The notes beneath the pieces were generated by a model. It ran no database searches. It was given only the letters and a program-made list of their open reading frames with translations, and was not told the DNA's origin. Both the position numbers and the translations under genes were made by a program. Below, in pieces: positions 1 through 32,056 of a stretch of DNA of 64,000 nucleotides. Source of the stretch: an uncultured Myxococcales bacterium (GTDB taxonomy: Bacteria > Myxococcota > UBA727 > JABDBI01); assembly GCA_964493205.1 (NCBI GenBank), contig CAZBMJ010000001.1:73611-137610 (forward strand). The letters are read 5' to 3'. The number at the start of each line of letters is the position of its first letter. Position 1 is the first letter of the stretch.

Positions 1-1091
1 TTAAGCAAATCACAGAAAATCCTTTTATTAATGAAGCGTTAATAACTCCAGCACGATTATTATATAAAAATAAGCTTTTAAAATCAGAAAAAATTGAAAA
101 TGGTAGTGTCTTACTAAAGCTAGAGTCAGAAGGGGCTGAAGATAAAATTCTTGATGAAACTAAGATGAAAGAGCTTTTTGGTGATTTTAAAAGAGAGGAA
201 AATCTTTTGGGCAAAGGGGGAATGGGTAGTGTTTATAAAGTGAATTATAAAGGCCAAGATTACGCTTTAAAAATAGGTACTTACGAATATGAAGAATTAG
301 AAGTATTGCAATCTACTGGTGCTGTAGCTAAAGTTTTTGGAACTTTTAGTTATGACAATAAGCCTTGTATGCTGATGGAAATTGGGCAAAAAAGTTTAGC
401 AGATATGAATAAAAATGGTGAAAAACTTACTAACGACCAGCTCACTACTGCTATTGCTAGTTTTACGAAGCTTATTGGCGAAGAAAAAAAAATTGGCATA
501 GAAAATAAGGATATTAAACCTGATAATCTTTTACTCACTAACGATAATAAGCTAGTGGTGATTGACATTTCTTCATCAGCTGAAACTACTGGCTATACTG
601 GTACTGAAGGGAAAAAATTTGCCATTTCTTTACTTGAAAATAAAAAAGGAATTTCTTTAGCTAGTGCTAATAAATTTATAACTACAGAAAGTCTATTAAA
701 TCCTGACCAAAAAACAAAAGGAGTATATTTTGTTGCTCCTTATGTTATTGCTCATTGGAGCAAAAAAGTATGTGTTGAAATACTTCTTTCCAAAGTCAAC
801 TGTGATGCTATAAAAACTCCTAAAGATTTTTTTGACCTTATTCCACCAGAAAAACGTGAAGAGCTAGCTCAACAAAAAAATGAAGAAATTAAACAAGAAA
901 ATGAGAAAAATATACATCATAAATTTAAAAAGAAAACTCTTGATAGTAATAATTATAATGATGTTATGGGTGTTTTAGCCGAAAAATACCCTCAGTATAC
1001 TGTTGAATATTTAGTTGATGATATTTTTAATAATGAATTAGATAAAAATGATGAAGTTAATAAAGGTTTAATTGAACTTTATAATTTGTAA
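1..1091 (+). CDS. Eukaryotic-like Ser/Thr protein kinase domain protein, 5' partial (reading frame is open to the window edge); paralog of 2179..4212
   Basis: Reading frame open from nt 3 onward. GKGGMGSVYKV glycine loop, YALKI (AxK), DIKPDNLLL catalytic-loop-like and VIDIS (DFG-like) motifs. N-terminal region aligns with the kinase 2 segment ENPFVGKDFITSARPS. Last 27 aa identical to kinase 2. Confidence 0.6.
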   Translation, partial: KQITENPFINEALITPARLLYKNKLLKSEKIENGSVLLKLESEGAEDKILDETKMKELFGDFKREENLLGKGGMGSVYKVNYKGQDYALKIGTYEYEELEVLQSTGAVAKVFGTFSYDNKPCMLMEIGQKSLADMNKNGEKLTNDQLTTAIASFTKLIGEEKKIGIENKDIKPDNLLLTNDNKLVVIDISSSAETTGYTGTEGKKFAISLLENKKGISLASANKFITTESLLNPDQKTKGVYFVAPYVIAHWSKKVCVEILLSKVNCDAIKTPKDFFDLIPPEKREELAQQKNEEIKQENEKNIHHKFKKKTLDSNNYNDVMGVLAEKYPQYTVEYLVDDIFNNELDKNDEVNKGLIELYNL

Positions 1092-1106
1092 ATTTACCTG
1101 CAGTGA

Positions 1107-1137
1107 CTAGCATGGTGCTAGCCAGTGATTTTTGTTG
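1107..1137 (+). terminator. Weak hairpin (ctagca-tgg-tgctag) followed by a T-rich stretch downstream of kinase 1
   Basis: 6-bp perfect inverted repeat with a 3-nt loop, then gatttttgttg. Weak for an intrinsic terminator. Confidence 0.25.
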
Positions 1138-1174
1138 CTATTATTAGTATATTATATTGATATGAATTTAAATA

Positions 1175-1417
1175 ATGCAGGAAAATAAGTTAATGCCAAC
1201 GATTAGTGCATTTTATGGAATACTGATTCAAATGTTTTGGGGTGATCATGCTCCACCTCACCTTCATGCGCTATACGCGGAATATGAGGTGCTGATCGAT
1301 ATCCACACTCTTGAAGTTATTCGTGGCTCTATGCCTCGTCGAGCATTAGCTTTAGTGTTGGAGTGGGCTTTTCAGTATCGTGCTGAGTTACTTGAGGATT
1401 GGAAATTATGCGAATAA
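1175..1417 (+). CDS. DUF4160-family small protein
   Basis: Sequence FYGILIQMFWGDHAPPHLHA...EVIRGSMPRRALALVLEWA is typical of the DUF4160 family. Locally higher GC than the flanks. Overlaps its DUF2442 partner. Confidence 0.6.
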   Translation: MQENKLMPTISAFYGILIQMFWGDHAPPHLHALYAEYEVLIDIHTLEVIRGSMPRRALALVLEWAFQYRAELLEDWKLCE

Positions 1418-1722
1418 AATCAATCGCCAAAGAAAATATCACCCCTAGAATAGTGTGTAACGCTCCTTGGCGGTTAATTAAAGTAAAACCACTACCAAAT
1501 TATGAACTTGAAGTTGAGTTTAATGATGGTACACATGGTTTTGTTGAAATGATTAAATTAATAATGAGTGATCATGCAGGAGTTTTTGCTGCGCTTAAAA
1601 ATAAAGATATATTTAATATGGTCCATCTTGAATATGGTGTATTAACTTGGCCAGGGGAAATTGATTTAGCGCCAGATGTTATGCACGATGTTGTTAAAGA
1701 AAAAGGACGCTGGGTTTTGTGA
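1399..1722 (+). CDS. DUF2442-family small protein, partner of DUF4160
   Basis: The DUF4160/DUF2442 pair is a conserved two-gene module. 19-nt overlap with the upstream gene. GC-richer than surrounding DNA. Confidence 0.55.
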   Translation: MEIMRIKSIAKENITPRIVCNAPWRLIKVKPLPNYELEVEFNDGTHGFVEMIKLIMSDHAGVFAALKNKDIFNMVHLEYGVLTWPGEIDLAPDVMHDVVKEKGRWVL

Positions 1723-1806
1723 ATAATCGTTTTTTTATCATCTGATAGCTTTACGAAAATTAATTTTGGGCCTCTTTTGTACCGGCCCAAATTATCTAAA
1801 ATCCTT

Positions 1807-1902
1807 TTTACATACTCAGTAAATATTCAACTAAAGTTCTAATGGCAAAGCCTGTGCCACCATACAAGCCCCTGTAAGAGTCGCAATATCAATAATTACA
1901 TC
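1807..1902 (-). pseudogene. Remnant of the pepA 3' end (duplicate of 4428..4480 plus 4777..4820, with a ~298-bp internal deletion)
   Basis: Near-identical nucleotide match to the 3' end of pepA at 4428..5948. The deletion is flanked by a gccacca direct repeat in the intact copy. Its length is not a multiple of 3. Confidence 0.7.
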
Positions 1903-2178
1903 AACTTAGAGACTTATGATAATAATGATTTAGATATAAATAGCTGTAGTTAACTTAAAGTAAGGCGGTTTGCTGTTGCTAACTATTATTTATCTGCTTA
2001 ATTAGCAATGCTTAGGTATGTAAGATTTTTGATCTACTTTATATGCTTAATTTAGCTATGAGCAACAGTTAAAAAGGCTAACCAATCGTTAAATAAAGTA
2101 AATTTATAACCATTTAACCTATTGGCTTATTTTTTTTTAATCTATTGATATGTGTTTTAAAAATGTTAAATAAATAGT

Positions 2179-4212
2179 ATGAAAAATATTTTTAAAATTT
2201 ATTTTATTATTGTGTTGTTATTTTTTATATCTTCTTGTGTTGATGTTGGAAAATCTGTGGAAAGAAAGCAATCTGGCGCCACAGGAAGTACAGATTCTTC
2301 TGGCTCAAATAACGATGAAACACTAAAAAAATGTAGCGAGCGTTCTAAGACTGAACTTAACTGTAGTTCAGATGGTAAATGCGAACTTTATCAAAATAAC
2401 TGTGTAGATGCTTGTCATACTATAAAAGAACCGACTGCTTGTGATGCACAAAAGCCAAGATGCCAATATTATAATGGAACTTGTTTACAATATTTTAAAG
2501 CTAAAGAACAAGAAGACGCTAAAAAAGAGGCAGAAGAGAAAGCTAAAAAAGAAGCAGAAAAGAAAGCTAAAGAAGAAGCTAACAAAATAGAGATATTAGG
2601 TGAGAATAAATATTTCAAAGTTAGTAAACAAGCTGGAAAAACTAGTTATGAAATAAAAGAAGCCGTTACCAAACCTACATTTATAAAAAAAGATGGGACG
2701 TTAGTGGAAAGTTCTAGTCTAGAGACTATTTCTTATGATGATTTTTCTAAGCTATCTCATATTGCTTTGCCTGAATCACATCCATTTACTAAACAGTTTT
2801 TAGAGAATCCCTTTGTCGGTAAAGATTTTATTACTTCAGCTAGGCCGTCTATGTGGGGCAAACTTTTAGTAGCACAAAAAACTGAGAAAAACACAGTGGT
2901 GTTTAGCATTGATAAAGATGTTTCAAAGCCAGATAAAAAAGTTATTGATGAAGCTAAGCTAACAGAACTTTTTGATGATTTTAAAAAACCAGAAAATCTT
3001 TTGGGCAAAGGTGGGGAGGGCAGTGTTTATAGAGTTAAGTACAATGGCGAAGATTATGCCTTAAAAATAAATGCAGCAGAGTACGAAGATTTAGAAAAAT
3101 TGCAGTCCACTGGGGCAGTGGCCAAAGTTTTTGGGACTTTTACATATGGCAATCAGCCTTGTATGCTCATGGAAGTTGGACAAAAAACTCTAGAAGATAT
3201 GAACAAACGTGGCGAAAAACTTAGTGAAGAGCAACTAAAAACTGCTATTACAAGTTTTAAAAACCTTGTTGCAGTGCAGAAAAAACTTGGGATTAGAAAT
3301 AACGATGTTAAACCAAACAATTTTTTGCTTACTAAAGATAATAAACTTGTAGTTATTGATATAAGTTCGATGCGCACTCGAGGATATGAAAGTTCAGATA
3401 CACAGCTTTTAGCTAGATCATTATTAGAAAATAAATTAGAAATGTCACTTAGAGGTGGTTATAGCGATTTGCAAGGCGTTCCTTTTCATGATCTAGAATA
3501 TATTAATCCAGAAATAATATCTCCAGACCTTTTGGTTAAGTGGAATAAAAAAGTTTGCAGTGAATTTTTACCTAAAGAGGATAAATGTAAAGATATCAAA
3601 AATTTTGCTGAATTTTTTAAACTTATTCCAACAGAGAAACTTTATGAAATTGCTTTGAAAATTAACCAAAAGTGGAATGATGTTTCAGGTACTGTTGATC
3701 AAGATAAGAATCTTATGGCGGGGGGGGGCAAATATCGTACTGGATTACCTATGCCTTTAGTGCAAGAACTAGATAATAACGTTTGGCAACAATACTTTGA
3801 TAAAAAAGACAATGTAATAAGTGGATTTTGTCGTTCTATTATTGCCAATTCTCAATATACTGAAGAAGAAGAAAAAGAAGGCCTTACAGGGGAAAAGGCT
3901 TTTTATAAACCATTTAAAGATAAATATAAGAAAGATTGTCTAGAAGATGGGACTGAAACTAACATCCATCTTCCAGGTAGAAAAGTTACAAAATATAAGT
4001 TAACTAAAAATTTTACTTCATCAGCAGATGAGGAATTTATACAATTTATTAAGGATGCTTATTCCTATCATATTTATCAACAAACCATGGCAAAATTAAT
4101 TGAAGATTATTCTAAATATACTGTTAAATATTTAATTAGTGATATTTTTAATAATGAATTAGATAAAAATGATGAAGTTAATAAAGGTTTAATTGAACTT
4201 TATAATTTGTAA
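2179..4212 (+). CDS. Eukaryotic-like Ser/Thr protein kinase lipoprotein (signal peptide plus lipobox FFISSC, Cys-rich N-terminal module, KEAEEKAKKEAEKKAK coiled-coil-like repeat, kinase domain, long C-terminal region)
   Basis: GKGGEGSVYRV, YALKI, NDVKPNNFLL and VIDISS motifs. Paralog of the 1..1091 gene with an identical C-terminus. Contains a G9 homopolymer at 3720..3728. Confidence 0.6.
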   Translation: MKNIFKIYFIIVLLFFISSCVDVGKSVERKQSGATGSTDSSGSNNDETLKKCSERSKTELNCSSDGKCELYQNNCVDACHTIKEPTACDAQKPRCQYYNGTCLQYFKAKEQEDAKKEAEEKAKKEAEKKAKEEANKIEILGENKYFKVSKQAGKTSYEIKEAVTKPTFIKKDGTLVESSSLETISYDDFSKLSHIALPESHPFTKQFLENPFVGKDFITSARPSMWGKLLVAQKTEKNTVVFSIDKDVSKPDKKVIDEAKLTELFDDFKKPENLLGKGGEGSVYRVKYNGEDYALKINAAEYEDLEKLQSTGAVAKVFGTFTYGNQPCMLMEVGQKTLEDMNKRGEKLSEEQLKTAITSFKNLVAVQKKLGIRNNDVKPNNFLLTKDNKLVVIDISSMRTRGYESSDTQLLARSLLENKLEMSLRGGYSDLQGVPFHDLEYINPEIISPDLLVKWNKKVCSEFLPKEDKCKDIKNFAEFFKLIPTEKLYEIALKINQKWNDVSGTVDQDKNLMAGGGKYRTGLPMPLVQELDNNVWQQYFDKKDNVISGFCRSIIANSQYTEEEEKEGLTGEKAFYKPFKDKYKKDCLEDGTETNIHLPGRKVTKYKLTKNFTSSADEEFIQFIKDAYSYHIYQQTMAKLIEDYSKYTVKYLISDIFNNELDKNDEVNKGLIELYNL

Positions 4213-4427
4213 ATTTATAAAAAAGAGTGACAACTATCTTGCAAAACACCAGGAGCATAGCAACGAGGCAGTCCATCTTCATAATGCCTAGATTGCCACA
4301 TCTTTCGCTATGCTCAAGATTCGCAAAGACGCTTATGTGAAGAGCTCTTCTTTAGAAGGGCTCTCTGGGCGACGTGGAACTCTTGGGTTGACTCCTATGG
4401 AGCACACCATAGCAAACATATTTAGCT

Positions 4428-5948
4428 TTACATACTCAGTAAATATTCAACTAAAGTTCTAATGGCAAAGCCTGTGCCACCAGTACCCAAGTATGGATGT
4501 GCTTTAGAATTGGTTGCTGGGCCTGCAATGTCTAAATGAGCCCATTTGGTATCGTTGGTTATAAATTGTTGTAAAAATAATGCTGCAGTGATGCTTCCGC
4601 CCCATCTATCTCCACAATTTTTAAAGTCAGCATTGGGAGTTTTTAAGCCTTCAAGCAGATCTTGGTTTAGAGGCAGTCGCCAAAATTGCTCTCCAGTTTT
4701 TTTATCTAGGCTTAATAAACTATTAGCGAGTTCATCGTCGTTACTAAAAAGGCCTGCACATTTGGTACCTAGCGCCACCATACATGCGCCTGTAAGAGTC
4801 GCAATATCAATAATTACATCGGGTTTATCATTGTCTATAGCATAGGTGATAGCATCAGCTAATATTAAACGACCTTCGGCGTCTGTATTGCTTATTTCAA
4901 TGCTTAAGCCATTTCTAGCGATAAAAATATCTCCTGGATGATAAGCTTTTGCATCAACGCCATTTTCTACACAAACCATGTAGCCAATAATATTAAAGTT
5001 AAGATTAAGGCTGGCTATAGTTTTCATCACACCTAGCACAGCTGCAGAGCCTGACATATCAACTTTCATATCAAGCATGCCATCAGCTGGTTTTATATCG
5101 AGGCCGCCTGAATCAAAAGTTACACCTTTGCCAATTAAAACTACAGTTTTTTTACTAGCTTTTTTAGGTTTATAAATAAGCTTTATAAGTCGGGGTGGCG
5201 CGAATTCTGATGCAGCACTGGCTACAGCAAGCATCAAGTTCATTTTTTCTTTTTGCAAAGCTTTTTCATCGAGTATTTCTATGCTTAAGCCAGTTTCTTT
5301 TGCAACTTTTTGTGCTTCTTTGGCTAATTGCACAGGATTAGCAAATATGGGAGGCTCGTTGATTAAATCTCTTGCCAAAATAACGCTACTAGCAATATTT
5401 TGTCCTGAAATTAAGGCTTTTTTTAACGCATCGGTGGGAGTTTCATGAATTATGAGATCTACTGTTTCAACATGGATAGTATGTTTATCCATATCTTTCG
5501 AATGATATTTTTTAAAAGTATATGAGGCTAAAATAATACCTTCAGTTATGGCTTGAATGGCATCAAATAAAGGAACTTCAGTATTTTTTGGTAGTAGTAT
5601 TTGTAAGCTTTTAATTTGTTTTTTGTTGGCTAGTTTATATGCATGGGCACCAGCTTGCCTAAAATGATCCACTGATTGTTTATAAGCATCTCCTAAACCA
5701 ATCAGTGCGATGCTCGTATTTGTTTCTTCATTAAAAATATTGCTTACAAATGTTTGATTAAGATCCGCGAGAAAACTTTCACGTTTAGCATGCTCAAATA
5801 AGTTTGAAGAGCACCATTTGTTTATGGTTTCTGCATTATCGTATATATCAAATTCATGTTTTTTGCTTTTTAAAGCTTTTTTATTGACTAAAACCACGCT
5901 TAAATCAGTTTTTTTTAAGGTTTTTGGGTTATTAAGACTAAATTTCAT
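4428..5948 (-). CDS. pepA: Leucyl aminopeptidase (M17 family)
   Basis: NTDAEGRL M17 signature, and VGKGVTFDSGGLDIKP metal-site motif. Length 506 aa. Confidence 0.9.
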   Translation of the reverse strand: MKFSLNNPKTLKKTDLSVVLVNKKALKSKKHEFDIYDNAETINKWCSSNLFEHAKRESFLADLNQTFVSNIFNEETNTSIALIGLGDAYKQSVDHFRQAGAHAYKLANKKQIKSLQILLPKNTEVPLFDAIQAITEGIILASYTFKKYHSKDMDKHTIHVETVDLIIHETPTDALKKALISGQNIASSVILARDLINEPPIFANPVQLAKEAQKVAKETGLSIEILDEKALQKEKMNLMLAVASAASEFAPPRLIKLIYKPKKASKKTVVLIGKGVTFDSGGLDIKPADGMLDMKVDMSGSAAVLGVMKTIASLNLNFNIIGYMVCVENGVDAKAYHPGDIFIARNGLSIEISNTDAEGRLILADAITYAIDNDKPDVIIDIATLTGACMVALGTKCAGLFSNDDELANSLLSLDKKTGEQFWRLPLNQDLLEGLKTPNADFKNCGDRWGGSITAALFLQQFITNDTKWAHLDIAGPATNSKAHPYLGTGGTGFAIRTLVEYLLSM

Positions 5949-8258: not shown

Positions 8259-9194
8259 ATGCAAGATCAAAAAATATTTCATAAAGATTTAACCCTTACA
8301 AATTCTTTATTTTTTATGGATAATTTGGCATTAAGAGTTAAGAAAATTTTACTTTCTAGACTATTAGATTCTGAAATAGAATTAAAAAACCAAATAGAAT
8401 TTATGTTTAACAAAAAAATTGGCAATAGAAGTTTGTTATTGCATTCAGATATATTTTTTTGGATTAAAAGCCAAGAAAAAACTCCTCTAGAAAATATCTT
8501 AAAAAGTGTTTTAGATAGCTTTAAAACTATGCAAAATAACAAAAATAATTTTGGTTTTTTTATAAGCATTAATTATTTAAATAAAATTTTTACGAGTAAT
8601 CGTCTAGCACGAGCTCAAAGAGCAGCTTCTGAGGCAGGAACTGGAGAAATTTCTTTTAGTATTGTTGATGCTGATCTAGATTTATTCAATGAATCAATAA
8701 GGCTTTTATGTGATTATTATCCTTCTATTATGCAAGAGACAGAAAATTTTGTAAGCAATATTTGTTTTTTTGAAGGTAAGACTATTATAGGCTTTACTGA
8801 TTTTCAAAATCATGGCTCTATTTTTATGAAGTATCGATTAGTAAAAGATAATCCAATACGCCTAGCTGAAGAAATTGTTCATGAAGCAGGACATACAGTG
8901 CTTAATACTATTATGGTCAAAGATAGATTGATTTTAAATACTAAAGACGAGCGCTATAGTAGCCCGTTAAGGCAAGACTTAAGGCCGATGTTTGGCTTAT
9001 TTCATCAGTTATATGTTTTATCTAGGCTTAAAAAATTTTATATGGCCATCAGTAAAGCCCATAGCTCAGTAGCACAAAAGCAGTTACAAAAAATATGTGC
9101 GCAGCAAGATTTAGCTTTTGATATTGTTTCAAAAAATGCAAAATTTACCCCATTTGGTAAACAATTTTTTAATGAGCTTGAGTGTAATGCATGA
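8259..9194 (+). CDS. HExxH-motif protein (putative metal-dependent peptide-modifying enzyme or peptidase)
   Basis: IVHEAGHTVLNT HExxH motif. 4-nt ATGA overlap with the downstream E1-like gene indicates translational coupling. Confidence 0.4.
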   Translation: MQDQKIFHKDLTLTNSLFFMDNLALRVKKILLSRLLDSEIELKNQIEFMFNKKIGNRSLLLHSDIFFWIKSQEKTPLENILKSVLDSFKTMQNNKNNFGFFISINYLNKIFTSNRLARAQRAASEAGTGEISFSIVDADLDLFNESIRLLCDYYPSIMQETENFVSNICFFEGKTIIGFTDFQNHGSIFMKYRLVKDNPIRLAEEIVHEAGHTVLNTIMVKDRLILNTKDERYSSPLRQDLRPMFGLFHQLYVLSRLKKFYMAISKAHSSVAQKQLQKICAQQDLAFDIVSKNAKFTPFGKQFFNELECNA

Positions 9195-10219
9195 GCTTAT
9201 TAGTCTTAGCACCAAAAGTACAAATAGTGCCTCTTGATGAAAACAAAATAATATTATTTAAAAAGCATGCAAAATCTGCAAAACTAAGTATCGAACCATA
9301 TAAACATGAAATTTTTGCTAATCTTTTAGTAAGTGGTTTTAAAAAAGAAGATCTAAGTTTTTTACTGGAAAAGCCTCAAAATATTATTGATAATTTAATT
9401 CAAAAATTGCTTGAACATAAAATTTTATCTTTTAAGTCAGAAAACCATGTTTTGGCAAAATATAGAAGGCTAGAAGCTTATTTAGAAAATTCTCAATTAG
9501 AAAGCTTACAAAACAGTTCTGTTTTATTATTAGGAGTAGGCGGTCTTGGTAGTTATATTTTTGAACATTTAGTTGCCAATGGAATTAAAAATATTACTGT
9601 TCTTGATGATGATAGCGTTGAAGAAAGTAATTTATCCAGACAGACTTTGTATTCTGATGAAGATGTAGGAAACCTCAAAGTTGAGGCGGCAGCTGTATAT
9701 GCTCATAAGCATGGTATAAATATCCGCGCTTTAGCATGCAGAATTAACACTACTGATGATATACTAAAGATTATTAAAGATAATAAATTTGATTTGATCA
9801 TATCCACCATAGATGAGCCCATATGGCAAGTTACGAGATATGTTATTAACGCTGCAAAAGCAACAAATATACCAGTATTACGAGCTAATAGTAGGGCTGT
9901 GGGGCCATTTTATTTTCCTCATAAATCAGCGTGTCCTTTGTGTAAATCTTTTTATAAGGCGAAAAATATACCAAATGCTAAAAGTATTATGGAGCGTTAT
10001 AATAATGGTTTTCCAGCTCGTAAAACCTGCGCTATTAGCTATGAACTTGCCTATGTTAGTTTAATCGTCATAAAAGAGGCTATTAATTTTTTAGCCAATG
10101 TGGGTCAACTTGCCAGTTTCAATAAAGAGCTTACCTGGAATGCACAAGAACTAAGTGTTGCATCTCACAAAGTTATTGCTTGTAGTAATTGCATCGCTTG
10201 CGGTGATGTTTATGAGTGA
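9191..10219 (+). CDS. E1/ThiF/MoeB-like adenylyltransferase-family protein with a ~100-aa N-terminal extension and C-terminal CxxC...CxxCxxC cysteines (MccB/PaaA-like architecture)
   Basis: Rossmann motif LLLGVGGLGS, ThiF signature DDDSVEESNLSRQ, and C-terminal CPLCK...CSNCIACG. Confidence 0.6.
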   Translation: MSLLVLAPKVQIVPLDENKIILFKKHAKSAKLSIEPYKHEIFANLLVSGFKKEDLSFLLEKPQNIIDNLIQKLLEHKILSFKSENHVLAKYRRLEAYLENSQLESLQNSSVLLLGVGGLGSYIFEHLVANGIKNITVLDDDSVEESNLSRQTLYSDEDVGNLKVEAAAVYAHKHGINIRALACRINTTDDILKIIKDNKFDLIISTIDEPIWQVTRYVINAAKATNIPVLRANSRAVGPFYFPHKSACPLCKSFYKAKNIPNAKSIMERYNNGFPARKTCAISYELAYVSLIVIKEAINFLANVGQLASFNKELTWNAQELSVASHKVIACSNCIACGDVYE

Positions 10220-11354
10220 GATGTTTGGAGGCATAGGCACTGATAATGTTATTACTAAAAAATTTTTTCATGAAGAGTCAAGTTTTTATATTGCATACTT
10301 AGCAGCTAAATCACCTAAATTTTTAGGCAATTATAACATACCTGCAGGATATTTAGTGGGTAATGGTTTTTCTTTTAACGAAGAAGAAGCTAAAATAAAG
10401 GCTTTAGGCGAATTTATTGAGAGGTATTGTGCAGAAGTAAGTGTTCATGAAAAAGAAATTTATCGTTATTCTATAAAAGAGCTCGTTAAAAAATCTTTGG
10501 CTTTTGTTCACCCTAATACTCTTAGACCATACAAAAATTGTTCAAAATATCCAGAAATTCAAGATGATGAAGTTATCTCCTATGTTAAAGGTTATGAAGC
10601 ACTTGATAAAAAAGAAATTCTAATACCTGCCTTAGCTGCATTTTTGCCTTTTAAGCCTATTAATTTAGAAACAACTTTTTTTAGCCCCAGTGCTACTGGT
10701 TTGTCAGCTTATACTAATCAAGAACAAGCAGAATTATCAGCTTTATTAGAGGTTCAGGAAAGAAGCGATTTAATGGCCAGTTGGCGAATTAAAAACCTTA
10801 AAATTCAAAAATTGCTTACAAACGATTTGCCTGACCATATTACAAAATTTTTATATTATAATAATTTTAAGTTAAGGCTATTTGTAATTAATCAGACTGT
10901 TTTAGCTATGCTGTGTCATATAAACGATACTGGGTTAACTATTGGCTCTAAATCAGGAGTCATTAATATTATTACGATACTTGCTGCTATTAATGAAGCA
11001 ATTGCTTTGCAAATTACCATGCTAAATAAACGTGTGAGATTTAACGCTATCCCTAAAAATAGTTTAGAACATGTTATGTATGCTTATTTTAACTCTGAAA
11101 TATTTATAGAATTTTATGAGAAAAAAGTTGATGCACAACTAAGTTTTATTTCTGAAAATCAAATAAATAAAAATATATTTTTTGTGGATTTAAGTACTAA
11201 AAAAGCTAAAGAATCAGGTTGGTATTGCGCTAGATGCATAAATATAGAAGCTTTTAGCAAAGAAAATAATGCATATTATCCGCACTTAAAAAACTTTTTT
11301 GAACACGGATTCACTGAGGCTGAGTTAAACTTATTGCCGCATCCTTTTGGTTAA
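10206..11354 (+). CDS. YcaO-domain protein (ATP-dependent peptide backbone-modifying enzyme family)
   Basis: GNGFSFNEEEAKIKALGEFIERY matches the YcaO A-x-GE-x-IERY signature. C-terminus ends in LPHPFG (PxPxP-like). Start chosen at ATG 10206, overlapping the E1-like stop. The ORF track starts it at 10155. Confidence 0.55.
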   Translation: MFMSEMFGGIGTDNVITKKFFHEESSFYIAYLAAKSPKFLGNYNIPAGYLVGNGFSFNEEEAKIKALGEFIERYCAEVSVHEKEIYRYSIKELVKKSLAFVHPNTLRPYKNCSKYPEIQDDEVISYVKGYEALDKKEILIPALAAFLPFKPINLETTFFSPSATGLSAYTNQEQAELSALLEVQERSDLMASWRIKNLKIQKLLTNDLPDHITKFLYYNNFKLRLFVINQTVLAMLCHINDTGLTIGSKSGVINIITILAAINEAIALQITMLNKRVRFNAIPKNSLEHVMYAYFNSEIFIEFYEKKVDAQLSFISENQINKNIFFVDLSTKKAKESGWYCARCINIEAFSKENNAYYPHLKNFFEHGFTEAELNLLPHPFG

Positions 11355-11357
11355 AGA

Positions 11358-12539
11358 ATGAAAAAATCATTGATTATTTTAGGTGTTTCACAAACTATAT
11401 CTTCTATTAGTGTAACTATACTTATATTTGCCCTTATGATGAGCTCTTATGGTAATTCCAAAAGTATTTTAGATCTTGCTTGGGTTTATATAGCCACATC
11501 TTTGCCAGTTTTTTTAGTAGCACCTTTTTGTGGATTATTAATAGATAAGCTTAATAAAAAGCTTAATTTAGTAATAGCCGATAGTATTTGTATTTTATCA
11601 GTACTCTTTCTTTATTTTAATAACTATTTTATTTTCTTGGTAGTTTTTTTTGTACAATTAAGCATAAGTTATCAGGGCTTAACCAATCAAACTTTGGTGT
11701 CGCTATTTTTTAATAAAGATAAACTTCATATGATACTTGGGTGGATGCAATTTAAAAAAGCTTTGCAGCGTTTAGTAGCGCCAGCTTTAGGTGGATATTT
11801 ATATAATATGTTGGAATTAAAATATATTATAGCTGTTAGCATTATTAGTTTAATAATAGCTTTAATTAGTTTAATTTTTGTGAATATACCTAGTGTTAAT
11901 ATTGGAAAATTATCTAACAGCAATTTTATTAATAATGCCGGATTAAAATATATATTGAGCGATAAAAATTTATTTAATATATGCATTTTTTTTATATTTC
12001 TTAATTTTTTATCTGGTATTTATTCTGTTGTTTATACTCCCATATTATTAGCTTTTAGCGATGAACAAGCTTTGGGTTATGCATTAAGTATTGGCAGTTT
12101 GGGAATGATTTTTGCAAGTTTAACGAGCGCTCATATAAAAAGCCTTACACAAAAAAAATATCAAGCTCTTTTGCTATATGTTTTTATGAATGGCTTAAGT
12201 GAAATATTTATGGCTTCATACCCAAATTTTTGGGTCTATTCTGTGGGTTTGTTATTTGGTTGTATTACTTCTTCTTATATAGCTGTTTGTAATAATATTA
12301 TATGGCAGTCTAGTGTGCCGTTCTCTATTCAAGGTGCTACTTTTGGGGCAAGAGATTTTTTTGCTCTTGGTGCATTACCATTGGGTATGCTGATTGGTGG
12401 AATTTTTGGTGATTTTATTAAATCCAACTATGAGCTTTCTCATATATTAATCTTAACGGGAATTTTGCAGTTAATTTTAGTAGCTTTTTATAGCTATGCG
12501 TGGAGGTTTGAGCATGAAGGGGTATATAGTAATAGATAA
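11358..12539 (+). CDS. MFS-family transporter, putative exporter of the modified peptide
   Basis: About 12 predicted TM helices. Starts 4 nt after the YcaO stop. MFS exporters are typical of microcin C and pantocin-type clusters. Confidence 0.55.
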   Translation: MKKSLIILGVSQTISSISVTILIFALMMSSYGNSKSILDLAWVYIATSLPVFLVAPFCGLLIDKLNKKLNLVIADSICILSVLFLYFNNYFIFLVVFFVQLSISYQGLTNQTLVSLFFNKDKLHMILGWMQFKKALQRLVAPALGGYLYNMLELKYIIAVSIISLIIALISLIFVNIPSVNIGKLSNSNFINNAGLKYILSDKNLFNICIFFIFLNFLSGIYSVVYTPILLAFSDEQALGYALSIGSLGMIFASLTSAHIKSLTQKKYQALLLYVFMNGLSEIFMASYPNFWVYSVGLLFGCITSSYIAVCNNIIWQSSVPFSIQGATFGARDFFALGALPLGMLIGGIFGDFIKSNYELSHILILTGILQLILVAFYSYAWRFEHEGVYSNR

Positions 12540-13134
12540 TTTTTATGAGAATCCTGATTTAATTAGAGCTCAAGCTTTAGAAGCTGATTTTTCTAAAAAG
12601 CATCCAAAATATCCAGGTATTGATAGCTCGTTAATGTTTAATAATAGTGAAGCTGAAGAGAAAATTAAAAGTATTATAAAATATGATACTCAAAGAGCAA
12701 GCTATTCAGGATTTTTTCGATTATCTACTGCGGATGAATATTACAAAGAAGGACATGGTATTCATATTGATAAATATGATATTGCTGCGATAATTTATTT
12801 AGCTCAGCCTGGCCAAAATAAACAGGTAGGTACAAGCTTTTTAAAGCATAAAGCTTCTGGTCTTACTAATTTTTATAATATTAAAAGAGATCCTAATCTT
12901 AATCCTGATTGGCAGCGTTTGGATACTCAAGAAATTATGAAAATAATTGTTAACGATATGGAAAAAAATGATGCAACTTTATGGGATTTAGTAGAAGAAG
13001 TGGAGTTTAAATATAATCGCGCTGTTTTAATGAGAGGTAACTTATTTCATAAGTTGAGTAACGGCTTTGGGCAAAATGTAGAAAACGGTCGCTTAACTCA
13101 AAATTTCTTTTTAAATATACCAAGAACTTTATAA
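12514..13134 (+). CDS. Putative 2OG-Fe(II) oxygenase-like protein (candidate HxD...H facial triad: HIDKYD and LFHKLS)
   Basis: N-terminal VIDNFYENPD motif resembles putative 2OG-Fe(II) oxygenase families. The ORF track start at 12496 overlaps the MFS gene. The second Met at 12514 is preferred. Confidence 0.35.
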   Translation: MKGYIVIDNFYENPDLIRAQALEADFSKKHPKYPGIDSSLMFNNSEAEEKIKSIIKYDTQRASYSGFFRLSTADEYYKEGHGIHIDKYDIAAIIYLAQPGQNKQVGTSFLKHKASGLTNFYNIKRDPNLNPDWQRLDTQEIMKIIVNDMEKNDATLWDLVEEVEFKYNRAVLMRGNLFHKLSNGFGQNVENGRLTQNFFLNIPRTL

Positions 13135-16771: not shown

Positions 16772-19700
16772 ATGAACAAAATATTTTTATATTGTTTAGT
16801 GTTTATTACTGCTAATTATTTATCAGCTATGAAATTTAATCCAATTAATAAAGATTGCTATATTGAAAGAAATTATGAGGTATTAAATAACTATAATAAT
16901 TTTAGTGTTTATATTAAATCTAAAATTGTTGATGTTATTGATAATTTTTATGAAAAATATGTGAAAAAAGATCTTCATAATGAAAGATATATGACTAGGT
17001 TGTTATTATTTTTAGTAAATATGGCACATGAATATAATATTGTAGATGATATTTTAGAAAATATTGAAAAAAATAATGAACAAGAAATTATAATTTACGC
17101 AAAAGAAATATACTTAAAATTTAGTAAAAATAATAATGAATTAATTCAAAATGCTTACACGGCTTTTGACGATAAAATATCAATAGAAGAATTAAATAAA
17201 TTAAGTCTTAATAATTCATATGGCATTGATGTTGTATATAAAAATAATAACATGATTAATCACCATTTAGTGGATATGATATTTTTTAAAATTATTAAAA
17301 ATAATTGTGATTTAGAAATAACTAGCCCTTCTTTAGGAATAACACTTCCAGCATCTATATGGTTTAAGTTGATTATTCTTGATCAGCAAGTAAAGATTTT
17401 ACTTTATAAAGAAAAATTTATATATAAACCATATTTTCCTTCAGTTGTTATAGAAACTTTATTTGATGATAATAATCATAGTAATTGTAGTAATATCGAG
17501 AAAATTAATAAATTATTAAGTGGTTTATTTTTATTTAATAAAAGTGATTTTGATATTATAAAAAATGCATTTAAGTTTATAAAAAATATAGAAGATTTTA
17601 AAAATTTTAATAAAAAAGATCATTTTTTTCTTTTTAGATATATTGCTTATAAATACGATGATAAAAAAAAATATACAATGTTAAATTATTTTACAGAAAA
17701 TATTATATCTAAGAATTATGTTGATTTTTATAATGATAATTTTGGATTTTCTTCATTAGTAAATGAACTCAATCTTAATGTAAATGATTATAGTGCTGAA
17801 AAGATTGAAAATATTAAAAATAATATAATCAACCAACATAAAAAACGTATGTATGAAATTTTATCTAAAAAATATTTTTACAATAAAGAAGTGAGTGATA
17901 ATATTGCTCGAATAGAATATGATAATTTTCTGTTTGAAAGTGAAATTGTTAATAATTATAATAAAATAATTATTGATTTTAATAAAAAAAATAAAGATAT
18001 ATTAACTGTTGATAAAATTTTAAAAATTAAAAGCAATTTCAATGAATCTTTTAAGAAAAAAATTTTTGATATAACTGAAATATTAAAAAATAATTTAAAT
18101 AATAAACAAATTGGCATTTATAATAAATTTAATAATATTTATTTTGATTATAATGAATTTAAAAACATTGAGATTTTTGATTATAATTATGAGATGACAG
18201 ATTTTTATAAAAAAATTAGAAATAGATTGTTTGCTAATGAAATTGTTAAATTGATAATTATTAAATCGATTAAATTTAATTTTATAAACGATAATTCAAC
18301 GGAACAAGATGTTATTAATTTAATTAAAGAAAGGACTAATTTTTTATTAAATAGTAATAGTAAAAACATGTTCGATAATGAAATTATTTATTTAAATAAT
18401 ATTGTAGATATTAAATATAAGTCAAAATCTAAAAATTTAATAGGTATTGATGTATTTATTTTTAATGAATTTTTAAGAGAGTTTTATTTGAAAATATTTT
18501 ATATATCTCCTGAAAATAAATATAATTTTTCTACAAAAAGCAATAAATTAGATATTGAATTACGATTTGATGAATGGCTCTTATTATTTGAAACTTTATC
18601 AAAAAAAGCAATTTTTAATGAGTTAGCAGTGCAAAATATTTTTGATAAAATAGTTGAGAAATTTAAAGATATTAAAGCTTATATAAAATACAACAATGAG
18701 AATCCATTTTTTGATAATTATTTAGCGGGTAAAAACAATCAATCTCTTAGAAAAAAACTGTTTGTTTATTATTTATATAATGAAAATAAAGAACTTATTG
18801 ATAATATTAAAAATGAAAATAATGAAGAAATTATAAGAAATAAATTTAATAATTTTTTAAGCAAAATTAATTACGCTAATAAGATTTTAATCAATAATAA
18901 AGAACAAGAAGAGCTAAAAGAACAAGATAAAGCGATTATCGATGAATATTTAGAAGAATTATTAGGTAAAACTTCTCATATAAGTTTTGCGTCAAATAAA
19001 AAAAATAATAAAAAAACGCAAGCTAAGAAAAAAACAAAAGTAAAACCAGATAAAAAAACAGAAAATAAAAAAGAACTAGAACCAGAGGCAACTAAAAATA
19101 ATAAAGACAAGCAAAAAACAACTAAAACTAATAAAAACAACAAAAACCCACAAAACCAAACTGGTGGTTTTATTGCAGATATACCTCTTCATAATAATAC
19201 AAAAAAAACAAAGAAAGCTTTGACGAAAGGGAAAATATTAGTCCAAGAAGCAGAGGCAGAAAATAAAAAAGAAGTAGAGCCGAATGCAACTAAAAGTAAT
19301 AAAAACAAGAAAAACCAACAAGAACAAACTGGTGGTTCTGTTGCTGAAAGTCCAGGTGTAGGGCTTCGTGAAGTTTTTGAAGCAACGCCTAGTCCTCCTG
19401 AGAATTCAAAAGTTTTTTTACCAAAAGCCTCTAATAAAGTTTTGCCGAAAAGGGAAATATTAGTCCGAGAAGCAGAGGTAGAACCAGAAGCAGAACCATC
19501 TACAGATTTATCTAAATACAAATATTTATCAAAAAAAGTTATTGTACCACAAATAAATAGCCAGTTTGGAGCTTTGCAGTATAAACTTGATAAAAAATAT
19601 GAAGATAAGCAAGAAAAAGTAGGGAAAAATGATGTAGTTTCTCTGCCTAACAGTAATGAGAAACCAGTAGCTATTAAACAAAAAACTGAATTGAGTCCTG

Positions 19701-20917
19701 TTCAAAATATTGAAAAAGAAGAATCAATAGTTTCAGAAGAAAAAAAAGAAATGTCAAAAAGAAAAATAAGAAAAGCAGAAATCAAAAGAATGAAAATTAA
19801 AGAAGATAGGGCTGAAAGAAAAAAAATTGCTATAAATGCTATAAATAATCAAAAATCTTTAAAAGCTAGTAAGGACAATTGGGAAAAAGAACAGCAAAAT
19901 AGAGAATTAGCATCAAAGAATAATTATGAAAAACTCTTATTAGAGTTAGAAAACAGAAATAGGGTTATAGAAAAAGCACTGTTAAAAAATGATTTTAAAG
20001 TAGTAGCGCTTAAAAAGAAATTAGAAGACGAATTGGAACGCAATAAAGTATCAATAAATCAAATACGCAAAAAAATAAACGATAAAACATTAAACTTAAA
20101 AGAGGCAGAAAAAAGTGTATCTATTTATTCAATTGAAAATTATGAAAAACCAGTAGTTATTCAACAAAAAACTGAATTAAGTCCTGTTCAAAATATTGAA
20201 AAAGAAAAGCCAAAGGCTGTACAAAAAAGAAAGGAAAATAATAATAAAGTAAGAAATTTTTTCGATACTACTAAAAATATTGCTAAAGATGCTATTTCTG
20301 CAGCTTCTGCAACTAAAAAAGTTGTTTTAGGGGATTTTGCATATGTGGCCAATTTTTTAAGTCAAAGACAAATAAATAGAATACAAACAGAAAATAAAAA
20401 ATTTATTGATAATTTTTCTAAAGATAAGGAAAAATACACTGAAATGATAAAAGAAATTTCAAAAAATTATTGCAATAATATTTTTGCTTTAGATGAGTTT
20501 ATAAATATATTGATTAATGAAAAACATAATGAAGATATTAATTATTTTAATATTAAATTATCAGAGGTTGATCTATATATTAAGAATATTTCTTTAAATC
20601 AGAATAATAAAAATGTTAATAATCTTGTTGAGCAAATATGTAATAATTTTAAATATTTAAATGAACATGAGGCAAATTTTATACAATTGATTTATTCATC
20701 ATCACATTATCAAAATTTGGTATATTCATTTATGCAAGTAGATGGTAATATTAGTGAACAAGATTTTAGTAAGTTATTGTTATGGGGTACTGCACATATA
20801 AAACAAAAAACTTTACTAAGTGATCGAGTTCTTGCTTATAAAAATAAAAGAAACATGTATTATGGCTATATAATTTCTTCTTATGAAAGATTAAGAGAAA
20901 TTTTAAAGCAAGAATAG
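16772..20917 (+). CDS. Giant (1381 aa) low-complexity Asn/Lys/Ile-rich secreted protein with internal tandem repeats
   Basis: 4.1-kb ORF in 30% GC DNA cannot plausibly arise by chance. Signal peptide MNKIFLYCLVFITANYLSA. Repeats at 19061..19482 and at 19658..19721 / 20144..20209. Confidence 0.6.
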   Translation: MNKIFLYCLVFITANYLSAMKFNPINKDCYIERNYEVLNNYNNFSVYIKSKIVDVIDNFYEKYVKKDLHNERYMTRLLLFLVNMAHEYNIVDDILENIEKNNEQEIIIYAKEIYLKFSKNNNELIQNAYTAFDDKISIEELNKLSLNNSYGIDVVYKNNNMINHHLVDMIFFKIIKNNCDLEITSPSLGITLPASIWFKLIILDQQVKILLYKEKFIYKPYFPSVVIETLFDDNNHSNCSNIEKINKLLSGLFLFNKSDFDIIKNAFKFIKNIEDFKNFNKKDHFFLFRYIAYKYDDKKKYTMLNYFTENIISKNYVDFYNDNFGFSSLVNELNLNVNDYSAEKIENIKNNIINQHKKRMYEILSKKYFYNKEVSDNIARIEYDNFLFESEIVNNYNKIIIDFNKKNKDILTVDKILKIKSNFNESFKKKIFDITEILKNNLNNKQIGIYNKFNNIYFDYNEFKNIEIFDYNYEMTDFYKKIRNRLFANEIVKLIIIKSIKFNFINDNSTEQDVINLIKERTNFLLNSNSKNMFDNEIIYLNNIVDIKYKSKSKNLIGIDVFIFNEFLREFYLKIFYISPENKYNFSTKSNKLDIELRFDEWLLLFETLSKKAIFNELAVQNIFDKIVEKFKDIKAYIKYNNENPFFDNYLAGKNNQSLRKKLFVYYLYNENKELIDNIKNENNEEIIRNKFNNFLSKINYANKILINNKEQEELKEQDKAIIDEYLEELLGKTSHISFASNKKNNKKTQAKKKTKVKPDKKTENKKELEPEATKNNKDKQKTTKTNKNNKNPQNQTGGFIADIPLHNNTKKTKKALTKGKILVQEAEAENKKEVEPNATKSNKNKKNQQEQTGGSVAESPGVGLREVFEATPSPPENSKVFLPKASNKVLPKREILVREAEVEPEAEPSTDLSKYKYLSKKVIVPQINSQFGALQYKLDKKYEDKQEKVGKNDVVSLPNSNEKPVAIKQKTELSPVQNIEKEESIVSEEKKEMSKRKIRKAEIKRMKIKEDRAERKKIAINAINNQKSLKASKDNWEKEQQNRELASKNNYEKLLLELENRNRVIEKALLKNDFKVVALKKKLEDELERNKVSINQIRKKINDKTLNLKEAEKSVSIYSIENYEKPVVIQQKTELSPVQNIEKEKPKAVQKRKENNNKVRNFFDTTKNIAKDAISAASATKKVVLGDFAYVANFLSQRQINRIQTENKKFIDNFSKDKEKYTEMIKEISKNYCNNIFALDEFINILINEKHNEDINYFNIKLSEVDLYIKNISLNQNNKNVNNLVEQICNNFKYLNEHEANFIQLIYSSSHYQNLVYSFMQVDGNISEQDFSKLLLWGTAHIKQKTLLSDRVLAYKNKRNMYYGYIISSYERLREILKQE

Positions 20918-31321: not shown

Positions 31322-32056
31322 TTGAGAGTTTGCTTTATGTGTAATATAAAATCTTTAATTATGTTCTTTTTAGCCTTATTGCTTATAGGTTCTTGCAGTT
31401 CTTCTGTTAAACGGGATAAACCTGACTTTTTTGCTTCCTATAATGCTTCAGAAACATCAGAAGAACAGCCGGCAGCAAGTGATGCTGAAGCGGTAGAAGA
31501 AAAAAAAGAAGAAATATCTGAAGAAAAGCCAGAAGAAGTCCAAAAGCAAGATGAAAAAGAGGAAAAAAAAATTTCAAATTCTCCATCTTTAGGAAGCGAT
31601 AGAAGAAGCCGTGATAATAGTCCTATTATAGAACCACCAGAAAATTCATTTTTACCAGATGAAGATGGCCCCGGATTACCACTACCTATTCCCTTTGATG
31701 ACGAATTGGCTCCAATAGATGTAATACCTAATTTTGGTTCAAGATTTGCAATTTGTGGCAACGGAAAGAGGGAGCCATCAGAACAATGTGATGATGGAGA
31801 TGACGATAATAATAATGGTTGTAATATTATATGCAAGCTACCTTCTTGTGGTAATGGTTTAACTGAAAAAGGTGAAACTTGCGATGATGGGGCTAACGAA
31901 TCAGGAGATGGATGCTCTGCTACGTGCCAGTTAGAATATTGTGGTAATGGAACTATAGATTCGAAAGGAGAGGATAAAGAACAGTGTGATGATGGTAATA
32001 GAAAAAATAATGATGGTTGTTCTATTATTTGCACATACGATACTATTATACCATGA
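31322..32056 (+). CDS. Lipoprotein with acidic linker and three tandem Myxococcus-type cysteine-rich repeats (CGNG...E-x-CDDGN...DGC...C)
   Basis: Lipobox LLIGSC. Three repeats of about 37 aa matching the Myxococcus cysteine-rich repeat pattern. Confidence 0.6.
   Translation: MRVCFMCNIKSLIMFFLALLLIGSCSSSVKRDKPDFFASYNASETSEEQPAASDAEAVEEKKEEISEEKPEEVQKQDEKEEKKISNSPSLGSDRRSRDNSPIIEPPENSFLPDEDGPGLPLPIPFDDELAPIDVIPNFGSRFAICGNGKREPSEQCDDGDDDNNNGCNIICKLPSCGNGLTEKGETCDDGANESGDGCSATCQLEYCGNGTIDSKGEDKEQCDDGNRKNNDGCSIICTYDTIIP

Follow-up and report, generated by a model that had tools for sequence, protein, structure and literature searches.

The window analysed here is a 64-kb stretch of DNA from an uncultured Myxococcales bacterium. 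It opens with two genes for eukaryote-like protein kinases, kinase 1 (K1) and kinase 2 (K2, whose residue numbering is used throughout), which are probably paralogues from an undescribed family of exported, lipid-anchored Hanks-type Ser/Thr kinases that most likely act where ATP is available. The kinase region contains four open reading frames (ORFs) on the forward strand, at 165..1091 (308 aa), 1175..1417 (80 aa), 1399..1722 (107 aa) and 2179..4212 (677 aa), the first and the last of which belong to the kinases. K2 is a complete coding sequence (CDS) of 677 aa (2179..4212, forward strand), and an NCBI genome contains exactly this sequence on a contig of 203 kb. The two proteins share 46% identity over 317 residues (E 2e-80) and end in the same 23 residues, and they are the only two copies of the family in the window.

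The kinase core and its catalytic residues

The initial annotation had read a Hanks-type core into both proteins from a glycine loop and the motifs AxK, DxKPxN and DIS. All of these were found in K1 as well as in K2, and the assignment is confirmed by the family profile, the predicted structure and the family-wide invariance of the catalytic residues. In the search that it had proposed with the Pfam profile Pkinase (PF00069), K1 scored above the gathering score of 31.7 bits (33.6 bits, E 3.4e-8) and K2 just below it (31.3 bits, E 1.8e-7). The match was thus significant in both proteins, though borderline, and the catalytic Lys and Asp were aligned; neither of the two outcomes it had named as fatal to the assignment, the lack of a significant Pkinase match or the absence of these residues, was encountered. 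On K1 and K2 the alignment spans only profile positions 4-149 of 263. Across the family Pkinase was detected at E<=1e-3 in 31 of the 33 members, with a best value of 1.7e-15, and the NCBIfam and PADLOC models gave weak generic matches to the two kinases over the same stretch as Pkinase.

In K1 the core occupies 165..644 on the forward strand, as supported by motif positions, the family alignment and a ratio of nonsynonymous to synonymous substitution rates (dN/dS) of 0.20 against K2. It contains the G-loop LLGKGGMGSV (204-233), the beta3 Lys in YALK (261-272), the catalytic loop DIKPDN (510-527), the Mg-binding VVIDIS (555-572), TTGY (585-596) and SLLENK (627-644). The core of K2 (residues 261-420; 2959..3438, forward strand) displays LLGKGGEGSV (2998-3027), K296 in YALK (3055-3066), EYEDLE (3079-3096), DVKPNN (3304-3321), VVIDIS (3349-3366), TRGY (3376-3387) and SLLENK (3418-3435). 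In the 33-sequence family alignment D376, K378, N381, I393 and D394 are invariant (33/33), K296 is conserved in 32/32 and E301, the alphaC Glu, in 31/32, and G278, K296, E301, M331 and L338 are each at least 94% conserved, the first three of them at least 97%, with the Gly-rich pattern GxGxxG being supplied by G276, G278 and G281. The D-x-K-P-x-N catalytic loop is the Ser/Thr signature of the Hanks classification. Neither the HRD His-Arg nor the DFG Phe-Gly is conserved, their places being taken by N-x-D (N-N-D, N-K-D or N-S-D) and I-D-I-S respectively; lacking the HRD His-Arg, these proteins are therefore non-RD kinases. Where a canonical activation segment ending in APE would be expected, a conserved TxGYxG ... 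ARSLLE places Glu417 23 residues past D394, and the alignments with both hidden Markov models and PDB profiles end at the DFG position.

An AlphaFold model of K2 residues 136-677, built from a 5-sequence alignment (pLDDT 73.6, pTM 0.68), assumes the bilobal kinase fold. When this model was compared with the PDB using Foldseek, more than 1,400 kinase chains were matched at E<=0.001. The probability was 1.00 in all 50 matches listed, and among these 50 the alignments mostly covered 170-230 columns, with TM scores of 0.40-0.47 in the compact kinase-domain matches. A viral structure library likewise returned kinases only. A chance match to the motifs was rejected, as Pfam, the family profile, the structural model and residue invariance all speak for a kinase.

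K1 and K2 have diverged to a synonymous distance (dS) of ~1.0 overall, and within the kinase core dN/dS is 0.20 at a dS of ~1.1. Both cores are under purifying selection, and at such a divergence this implies that both copies have been kept functional for a long time. We also rejected the possibility that K1 is a pseudogene because, though a C-terminal sub-region of ~120 aa is missing, its core is intact and under purifying selection.

A rare family with a conserved architecture

An exhaustive HMMER search of 1.84 billion representatives recovered 33 proteins at E<=1e-30, a number that rises to 48 at E<=1e-10, each matched over its full length, and in the same search ordinary kinases matched the family profile only from the N-lobe to the DFG position, at ~1e-8. 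K1 and K2 belong to a rare, unnamed and distinct family. A metagenome scan with generic G-loop/VAIK patterns returned ordinary kinases only, and a scan of GTDB genomes with a kinase pattern yielded no relative. Against solved structures the family profile found human TTK/Mps1 best (E 1.2e-13, the alignment ending at the DFG position), and by sequence K1 and K2 lie nearer to eukaryotic kinases, represented by TTK/Mps1, than to any bacterial kinase of solved structure. TTK/Mps1 (PDB 5eh0, 5n84) reached 53.7 bits, ~15 bits above nearly all other kinases, with only CDPK2 close, at 50.9 bits. It shares with the family the YM(I/V)ME-G hinge and the D-(I/L)-K-P-x-N ... (L/V)-I-D pattern, and Foldseek aligns it with the K2 model over 178 columns (TM 0.47, root-mean-square deviation 4.1). 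The similarity ends at DFG: TTK works inside eukaryotic cells, has a normal C-lobe but no signal peptide, and is without the N-domain and C-region of the family.

Computation shows that the members follow a common order, namely a lipobox signal, a variable tether, a beta-rich N-domain, the kinase core and a helical C-region with four cysteines. The tethers behind the lipobox Cys are K/E-rich in K1 and K2 and P/T/Q-rich in other members, and some contain ankyrin-like repeats, with Ank_2 detected at E<=1e-3 in one. K2 has a tether of its own (2332..2583, forward strand), which consists of an 8-Cys module followed by a K/E-rich AKKEAE linker (residues 106-135). Both elements had been noticed earlier, and we found the eight Cys within residues 52-102 (at 52, 62, 68, 75, 79, 88, 95 and 102) and two AKKEAE repeats at nt 2518-2559. 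This tether gave no Pfam match at E<=1, and its Cys-rich module does not resemble the window's other Cys-rich proteins. The family-specific N-domain (residues 136-260; 2584..2958, forward strand) is predicted to be beta-rich, carries LLP, NPF and RPSxWG motifs and is conserved family-wide. Its part of the model has a pLDDT of 79.6, and a fold search against the PDB found no match (best E 0.61, probability <=0.14), nor did Pfam. The equally family-specific helical C-region (residues 421-677, ~260 aa; 3439..4209, forward strand), which ends in a conserved L..LY helix, matched neither Pfam nor, in a profile search, the PDB sequences, and NCBIfam revealed no recognisable sorting domain such as a type IX secretion system (T9SS) tail. 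The family would also offer two protein domains of unknown fold for study.

The four cysteines of the C-region, Cys460, Cys470, Cys551 and Cys587, are conserved in 31/33, 31/33, 27/30 and 25/29 sequences respectively. In K1, which is without the ~120-aa sub-region of this segment, Cys551 and Cys587 are gone together and Cys460 and Cys470 are kept, as expected of two separate disulfides.

A predicted lipoprotein signal on both kinases

Lipoprotein signals were called by a rule-based reading of the n-region, the h-region and the lipobox, [LVI][ASTVI][GAS]C. In K2 the predicted signal peptide (2179..2238, forward strand) comprises a K-rich n-region, a hydrophobic run of ~14 residues and the lipobox ISS followed by Cys20. 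The lipoprotein signal which the initial annotation had reported for this protein was thus recovered, as MKNIFKIYFIIVLLFFISS directly preceding the Cys.

The same source had placed the start of K1 at 165, and here we disagree with it: the frame of 165..1091 is open from base 3, hence Met165 is internal and the gene extends beyond the window. The window holds the 3' part of the gene (3..1091, forward strand, no stop from base 3), its 5' edge cutting the CDS. A search for homologues led to a protein, P0005, encoded on the metagenome contig L084. Window bases 1-377 recur there with 100% identity, and joining this contig to the window gave a K1 protein of 500 aa beginning MKNIFKIYFIIALLFFISSC. The lipobox signal of the reconstructed K1 is nearly that of K2 (MKNIFKIYFIIVLLFFISSC), both leading from MKNIFK to ISS and the Cys. 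As L084 shows 9 differences from the 5' region of K2 and 0 in the 377-nt overlap with the window, it represents a distinct copy and not a mis-joined K2. Its coverage is 2.7x, and it departs from the window after base 377 and is therefore chimeric or rearranged downstream. Since L084 supplies K1 with a 5' end that includes a lipobox, both proteins are predicted lipoproteins, which agrees with the earlier view that both kinases are secreted or lipidated.

This signal is not confined to the two paralogues. The lipobox column holds Cys in 26 of the 27 family sequences having a residue there, and nearly all full-length members show a short positive stretch, a hydrophobic run of ~14-16 residues and a Cys in a strict or relaxed lipobox, the same signal being present in P0002 and P0007; the members without the lipobox Cys appear N-terminally truncated. 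The predicted export signal is thus a trait of the family, and the hydrophobic run of ~14-16 residues is too short for a membrane-spanning anchor. These features would place the catalytic domain outside the cytoplasm, stabilised by disulfides.

Proposed site of action and alternative explanations

We propose that the proteins would leave the cytoplasm through Sec and be anchored in a membrane by acylation of Cys20, that the disulfide-stabilised kinase would fold outside the cytoplasm, and that it would catalyze ATP-dependent Ser/Thr phosphotransfer, as the D-x-K-P-x-N signature suggests. The periplasm is generally held to lack ATP. As an exported kinase needs ATP, this favours the cell surface, vesicles, a partner cell or extracellular ATP, and the most likely site of action would be the cell surface or vesicles touching or inside another cell (a host or prey), unless extracellular ATP is used. 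The export signal suggests, without proving, action on another cell, and by elimination a host-directed effector is plausible. In the more far-reaching form of this proposal, which we consider possible rather than probable, K1 and K2 might represent the first family of lipid-anchored extracytoplasmic bacterial Ser/Thr kinases, displayed on the surface or on vesicles and either phosphorylating host or prey proteins or using extracellular ATP, with promoter/signal and 3' blocks that permit the bodies of the genes to be swapped.

The initial annotation had already named the two proteins as candidate host-directed effectors. What we can retain of this is a pair of kinases with a full catalytic set and a predicted export signal; evidence for host-protein targets was not found. 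It had further invoked a eukaryote-like domain repertoire in the window. The disintegrin-like protein was indeed found (942 aa, with FG-GAP repeats and a disintegrin domain, 49820-52648), as was a glutamine synthetase of 367 aa, but no FHA domain could be detected in the window ORFs scanned to account for the FHA protein that it listed. The argument from the repertoire is weak, both because FHA was not found and because disintegrin, FG-GAP and DUF4215 proteins do not by themselves indicate a host.

Several points weigh against our proposal. The Pfam scores of the single proteins lie at the threshold and the C-lobe is not recognisable from sequence, and the structural model was built from only five sequences and includes several low-confidence stretches in the C-region. 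The four conserved cysteines could bind metal instead of forming disulfides. Lipidation and localisation are predicted from a rule-based reading of the sequence only, and the N-terminus of K1 was taken from a metagenome contig of low coverage (2.7x) that is chimeric further downstream. Finally, no host or prey evidence was found, and there is neither a secretion-system nor a conserved-neighbour context.

One alternative is that these proteins are exported lipoproteins which stay in the periplasm or outer membrane and whose kinase fold does not serve the ATP-dependent phosphorylation of foreign targets. They might sense ligands or nucleotides, act as scaffolds, use a different phosphate donor or catalyse other chemistry as in SelO or SidJ. 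The export signal, a periplasm held to be free of ATP and the large N- and C-domains without known function would all fit such a role. We nevertheless regard it as unlikely, for the full phosphotransfer set including the Ser/Thr-type Lys is invariant family-wide, scaffolds and pseudokinases usually lose this set, and SelO- and SidJ-type enzymes have different active-site signatures.

Somewhat less likely again is that K1 and K2 are ordinary regulatory Hanks kinases, held on the cytoplasmic face of the inner membrane by an N-terminal hydrophobic segment that functions as an uncleaved anchor. Most bacterial Hanks kinases are cytoplasmic regulators, ATP is present in that compartment, and the NCBIfam and PADLOC matches are to cytoplasmic kinases. 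The N-terminus argues otherwise, as the hydrophobic run, which is preceded by positive charges, is too short to cross a membrane and is closed by a Cys in 26/27. Behind this Cys come long disordered, Cys-rich or ankyrin-like tethers and four conserved Cys of the mature part, and no gene for a partner phosphatase or FHA protein lies nearby.

A third alternative, in which a defence or toxin-antitoxin islet would encode K1 and K2 as anti-phage kinases resembling PD-T4-6 or Stk2, might draw on the best PADLOC matches, which are to PD-T4-6 models (E 1.1e-10 for K1, 1.2e-7 for K2) and also to mad6, on the DUF4160/DUF2442 pair between the genes and on recombination at the locus, but is very improbable, because those matches span only model positions ~5-164 (the generic stretch from the N-lobe to DFG, at the strength of Pkinase), defence kinases must act in the cytoplasm whereas a lipobox signal is present here, searches of plasmid records found no match to the kinases, and their homologues adjoin the housekeeping genes rplL and mnmA. 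Membership in PD-T4-6 was accordingly rejected, there being no specific full-length model match and the export signal being incompatible with a cytoplasmic role.

Relation to known kinases

The exported, lipid-anchored kinases proposed here can be set beside several better known groups. PknB of Mycobacterium tuberculosis has the same fold and catalytic residues and is among the Foldseek matches (6i2p, 3orm), but its topology is opposite: PknB is a cytoplasmic kinase with one transmembrane helix and extracellular PASTA sensors, whereas in our family the kinase lies behind a lipobox. PknB is, moreover, an RD kinase under activation-loop phosphorylation, and the family is without the HRD His-Arg.

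The effector kinases of Legionella (LegK1-4/7), Yersinia (YopO/YpkA), Shigella (OspG), E. coli (NleH), Salmonella (SteC) and Pseudomonas (HopBF1) are likewise bacterial eukaryote-like Ser/Thr kinases whose site of action is another cell; their C-lobe is often divergent or minimal, and they are described as type III/IV-delivered. It is this class that the initial annotation had in view. The family differs from them in its predicted Sec/signal peptidase II (SPII) signal and lipid anchor, and the sequence relation is limited to the generic kinase core. We therefore did not place K1 and K2 in the type III/IV-translocated class, as the Sec/SPII signal is present and no secretion-system genes were found in the 64-kb window. 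A 2025 review of effector kinases does not mention a lipoprotein, signal-peptide or vesicle route (PMC12756638).

Fam20C, VLK and the rhoptry (ROP) kinases of Toxoplasma resemble the family in bearing an export signal on the kinase and in working outside the cytosol of the producer. Fam20C and the ROP kinases are also disulfide-stabilised, and their N-lobe often carries an N-terminal extension. The lumen of the eukaryotic secretory pathway receives ATP; no such supply is known for the periplasm. The concept of a kinase that bears its own export signal extends to STPKLRR of Vibrio splendidus, reported as secreted (PMC10237653). None of Fam20C, VLK, the rhoptry kinases and STPKLRR is a bacterial lipoprotein, and no homology to the family could be detected beyond the fold.

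Our literature searches found no description of lipoprotein kinases. Bacterial kinases are known as cytoplasmic regulators or as effectors injected by dedicated machines, and a family placed behind a lipoprotein signal challenges the assumption that they belong in the cytoplasm only. Should its members turn out to be active and exposed on the surface, phosphorylation directed at host or prey would have a new delivery route that does without type III/IV injection. The lineages from which this small family is drawn have been poorly sampled, and the tandem copies with their clear domain boundaries provide a practical starting point for expression and assay.

Recombination at the kinase locus

The two kinase genes are bounded by near-identical blocks. 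The 5' conserved block of K2 (1866..2298, forward strand) includes 313 nt of upstream sequence and the first 120 nt of the CDS, which encode the signal peptide and ~20 mature residues, and is 97.9% identical to L084 positions 12-444 (433 nt, 9 mismatches). At the other end a 78-nt 3' conserved block, also on the forward strand, occurs at 1019..1096, where it consists of the last 23 codons of K1, its stop and 5 nt, and with 100% identity at 4140..4217 in K2. As the gene bodies have a dS of ~1 and their ends are near-identical, the locus is a recombination mosaic.

K2 is further bracketed by two 56-nt direct repeats, listed without strand, which are copies of the 3' end of pepA. The second (4427..4482) is the true end of pepA (Peptidase_M17; 4428..5948, reverse strand), a gene that follows K2 in convergent orientation, and the first (1807..1862) is an orphan, 100% identical to the second in unrelated flanks, which ends 3 nt before the 5' block of K2 and appears to mark a duplication or insertion junction. 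The arrangement would fit a tandem duplication of the unit [5' block - kinase - 3' block - spacer - pepA end], after which one body and its spacer would have been replaced by recombination; gene conversion confined to the ends of the unit would also fit. In short-read assemblies of the same organism the contigs L106 and L107 end within pepA or beside it.

The spacer behind K1 holds a pair of genes, and its counterpart behind K2 measures only ~210 nt. The first gene (1175..1417, forward strand; Pfam DUF4160, E 1.3e-19) encodes a DhiT-like candidate toxin, and the second (1399..1722, forward strand; DUF2442, E 1.3e-9), which overlaps its end, a DhiA-like candidate antitoxin. Against NCBIfam the pair scored 77.6 bits for DhiT (cut-off 100) and 18.6 bits for DhiA (cut-off 200). 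An assignment as a DhiT/DhiA type II toxin-antitoxin was therefore rejected, both scores being below the equivalog cut-offs, and the proteins were left in the broader Pfam families DUF4160 and DUF2442.

In its layout the locus recalls the Vlp/Vsp genes of Mycoplasma, paralogous lipoprotein genes that combine a near-identical block of promoter, 5' untranslated region and signal peptide with differing mature parts. Vlp and Vsp are variable surface-lipoprotein gene families with conserved 5' ends, in which the variable part is a repeat antigen. In contrast, only two copies are seen here, there is no evidence of switching, and the variable part is an enzyme. A T9 homopolymer lies within the 5' block at 2135-2143, ~40 nt upstream of the kinase start codons, and is also present in L084; its length is equal in these two copies, the 5' block of K2 and L084, and gives no sign of phase variation. 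No Rfam element, convincing promoter or terminator was found near the kinase genes.

Genomic context

Genomic context could be assessed in three relatives of the kinases (L001/L002, L083 and L084). P0002 lies behind nusG-rplKAJL and P0004 ahead of mnmA, and no conserved operon partner was found among the relatives with known context. On L001, from a related metagenome organism, P0002 (3558-5213) directly follows rplL, a position usually taken by rpoB. A close variant of P0002, P0006, is without most of the N-domain.

Scans of the 64-kb window revealed no type III, IV or VI secretion genes. G+C is ~30% across the window and the same in the kinase region, and 16 of 44 genes use a Shine-Dalgarno sequence, a share that is not diagnostic of a lineage. 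Besides the proteins already mentioned the window encodes ruvC, yebC, a surE...nlpD-like pair, aconitase, comEC, L21/L27, polA, trigger factor and PrkA, along with an amino-acid permease, an enoyl-CoA hydratase, a YcaO-ThiF cluster and a sulfate permease-carbonic anhydrase fusion. This gene content suggests the ordinary chromosome of a metabolically capable diderm. A scan with the aconitase gave hits of only 55-60%, spread across many phyla, and the 30% G+C together with the DUF4215 and FG-GAP proteins prompted a tentative guess of Silvanigrellales/Bdellovibrionota.

Two further kinases of the window, a sodium:solute-symporter-fused histidine kinase of CbrA-like architecture (54329-57016) and the PrkA-type AAA kinase (61581-63830), are unrelated to the lipoprotein kinases. 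A 244-aa protein with a Cys-rich DUF4215 repeat is encoded at 31322-32056. A 1381-aa ORF at 16772-20917 lies in a strongly AT-skewed stretch with only 23% G+C; Pfam gave no match to it at E<=1, and NCBI and Logan assemblies contain the identical protein. Finally, the region 8259-13134 combines genes for a 311-aa protein without assigned function, a ThiF-like E1 enzyme, a YcaO protein, an MFS transporter and a DUF6445 protein, and may constitute a small YcaO-dependent locus for peptide modification or export.

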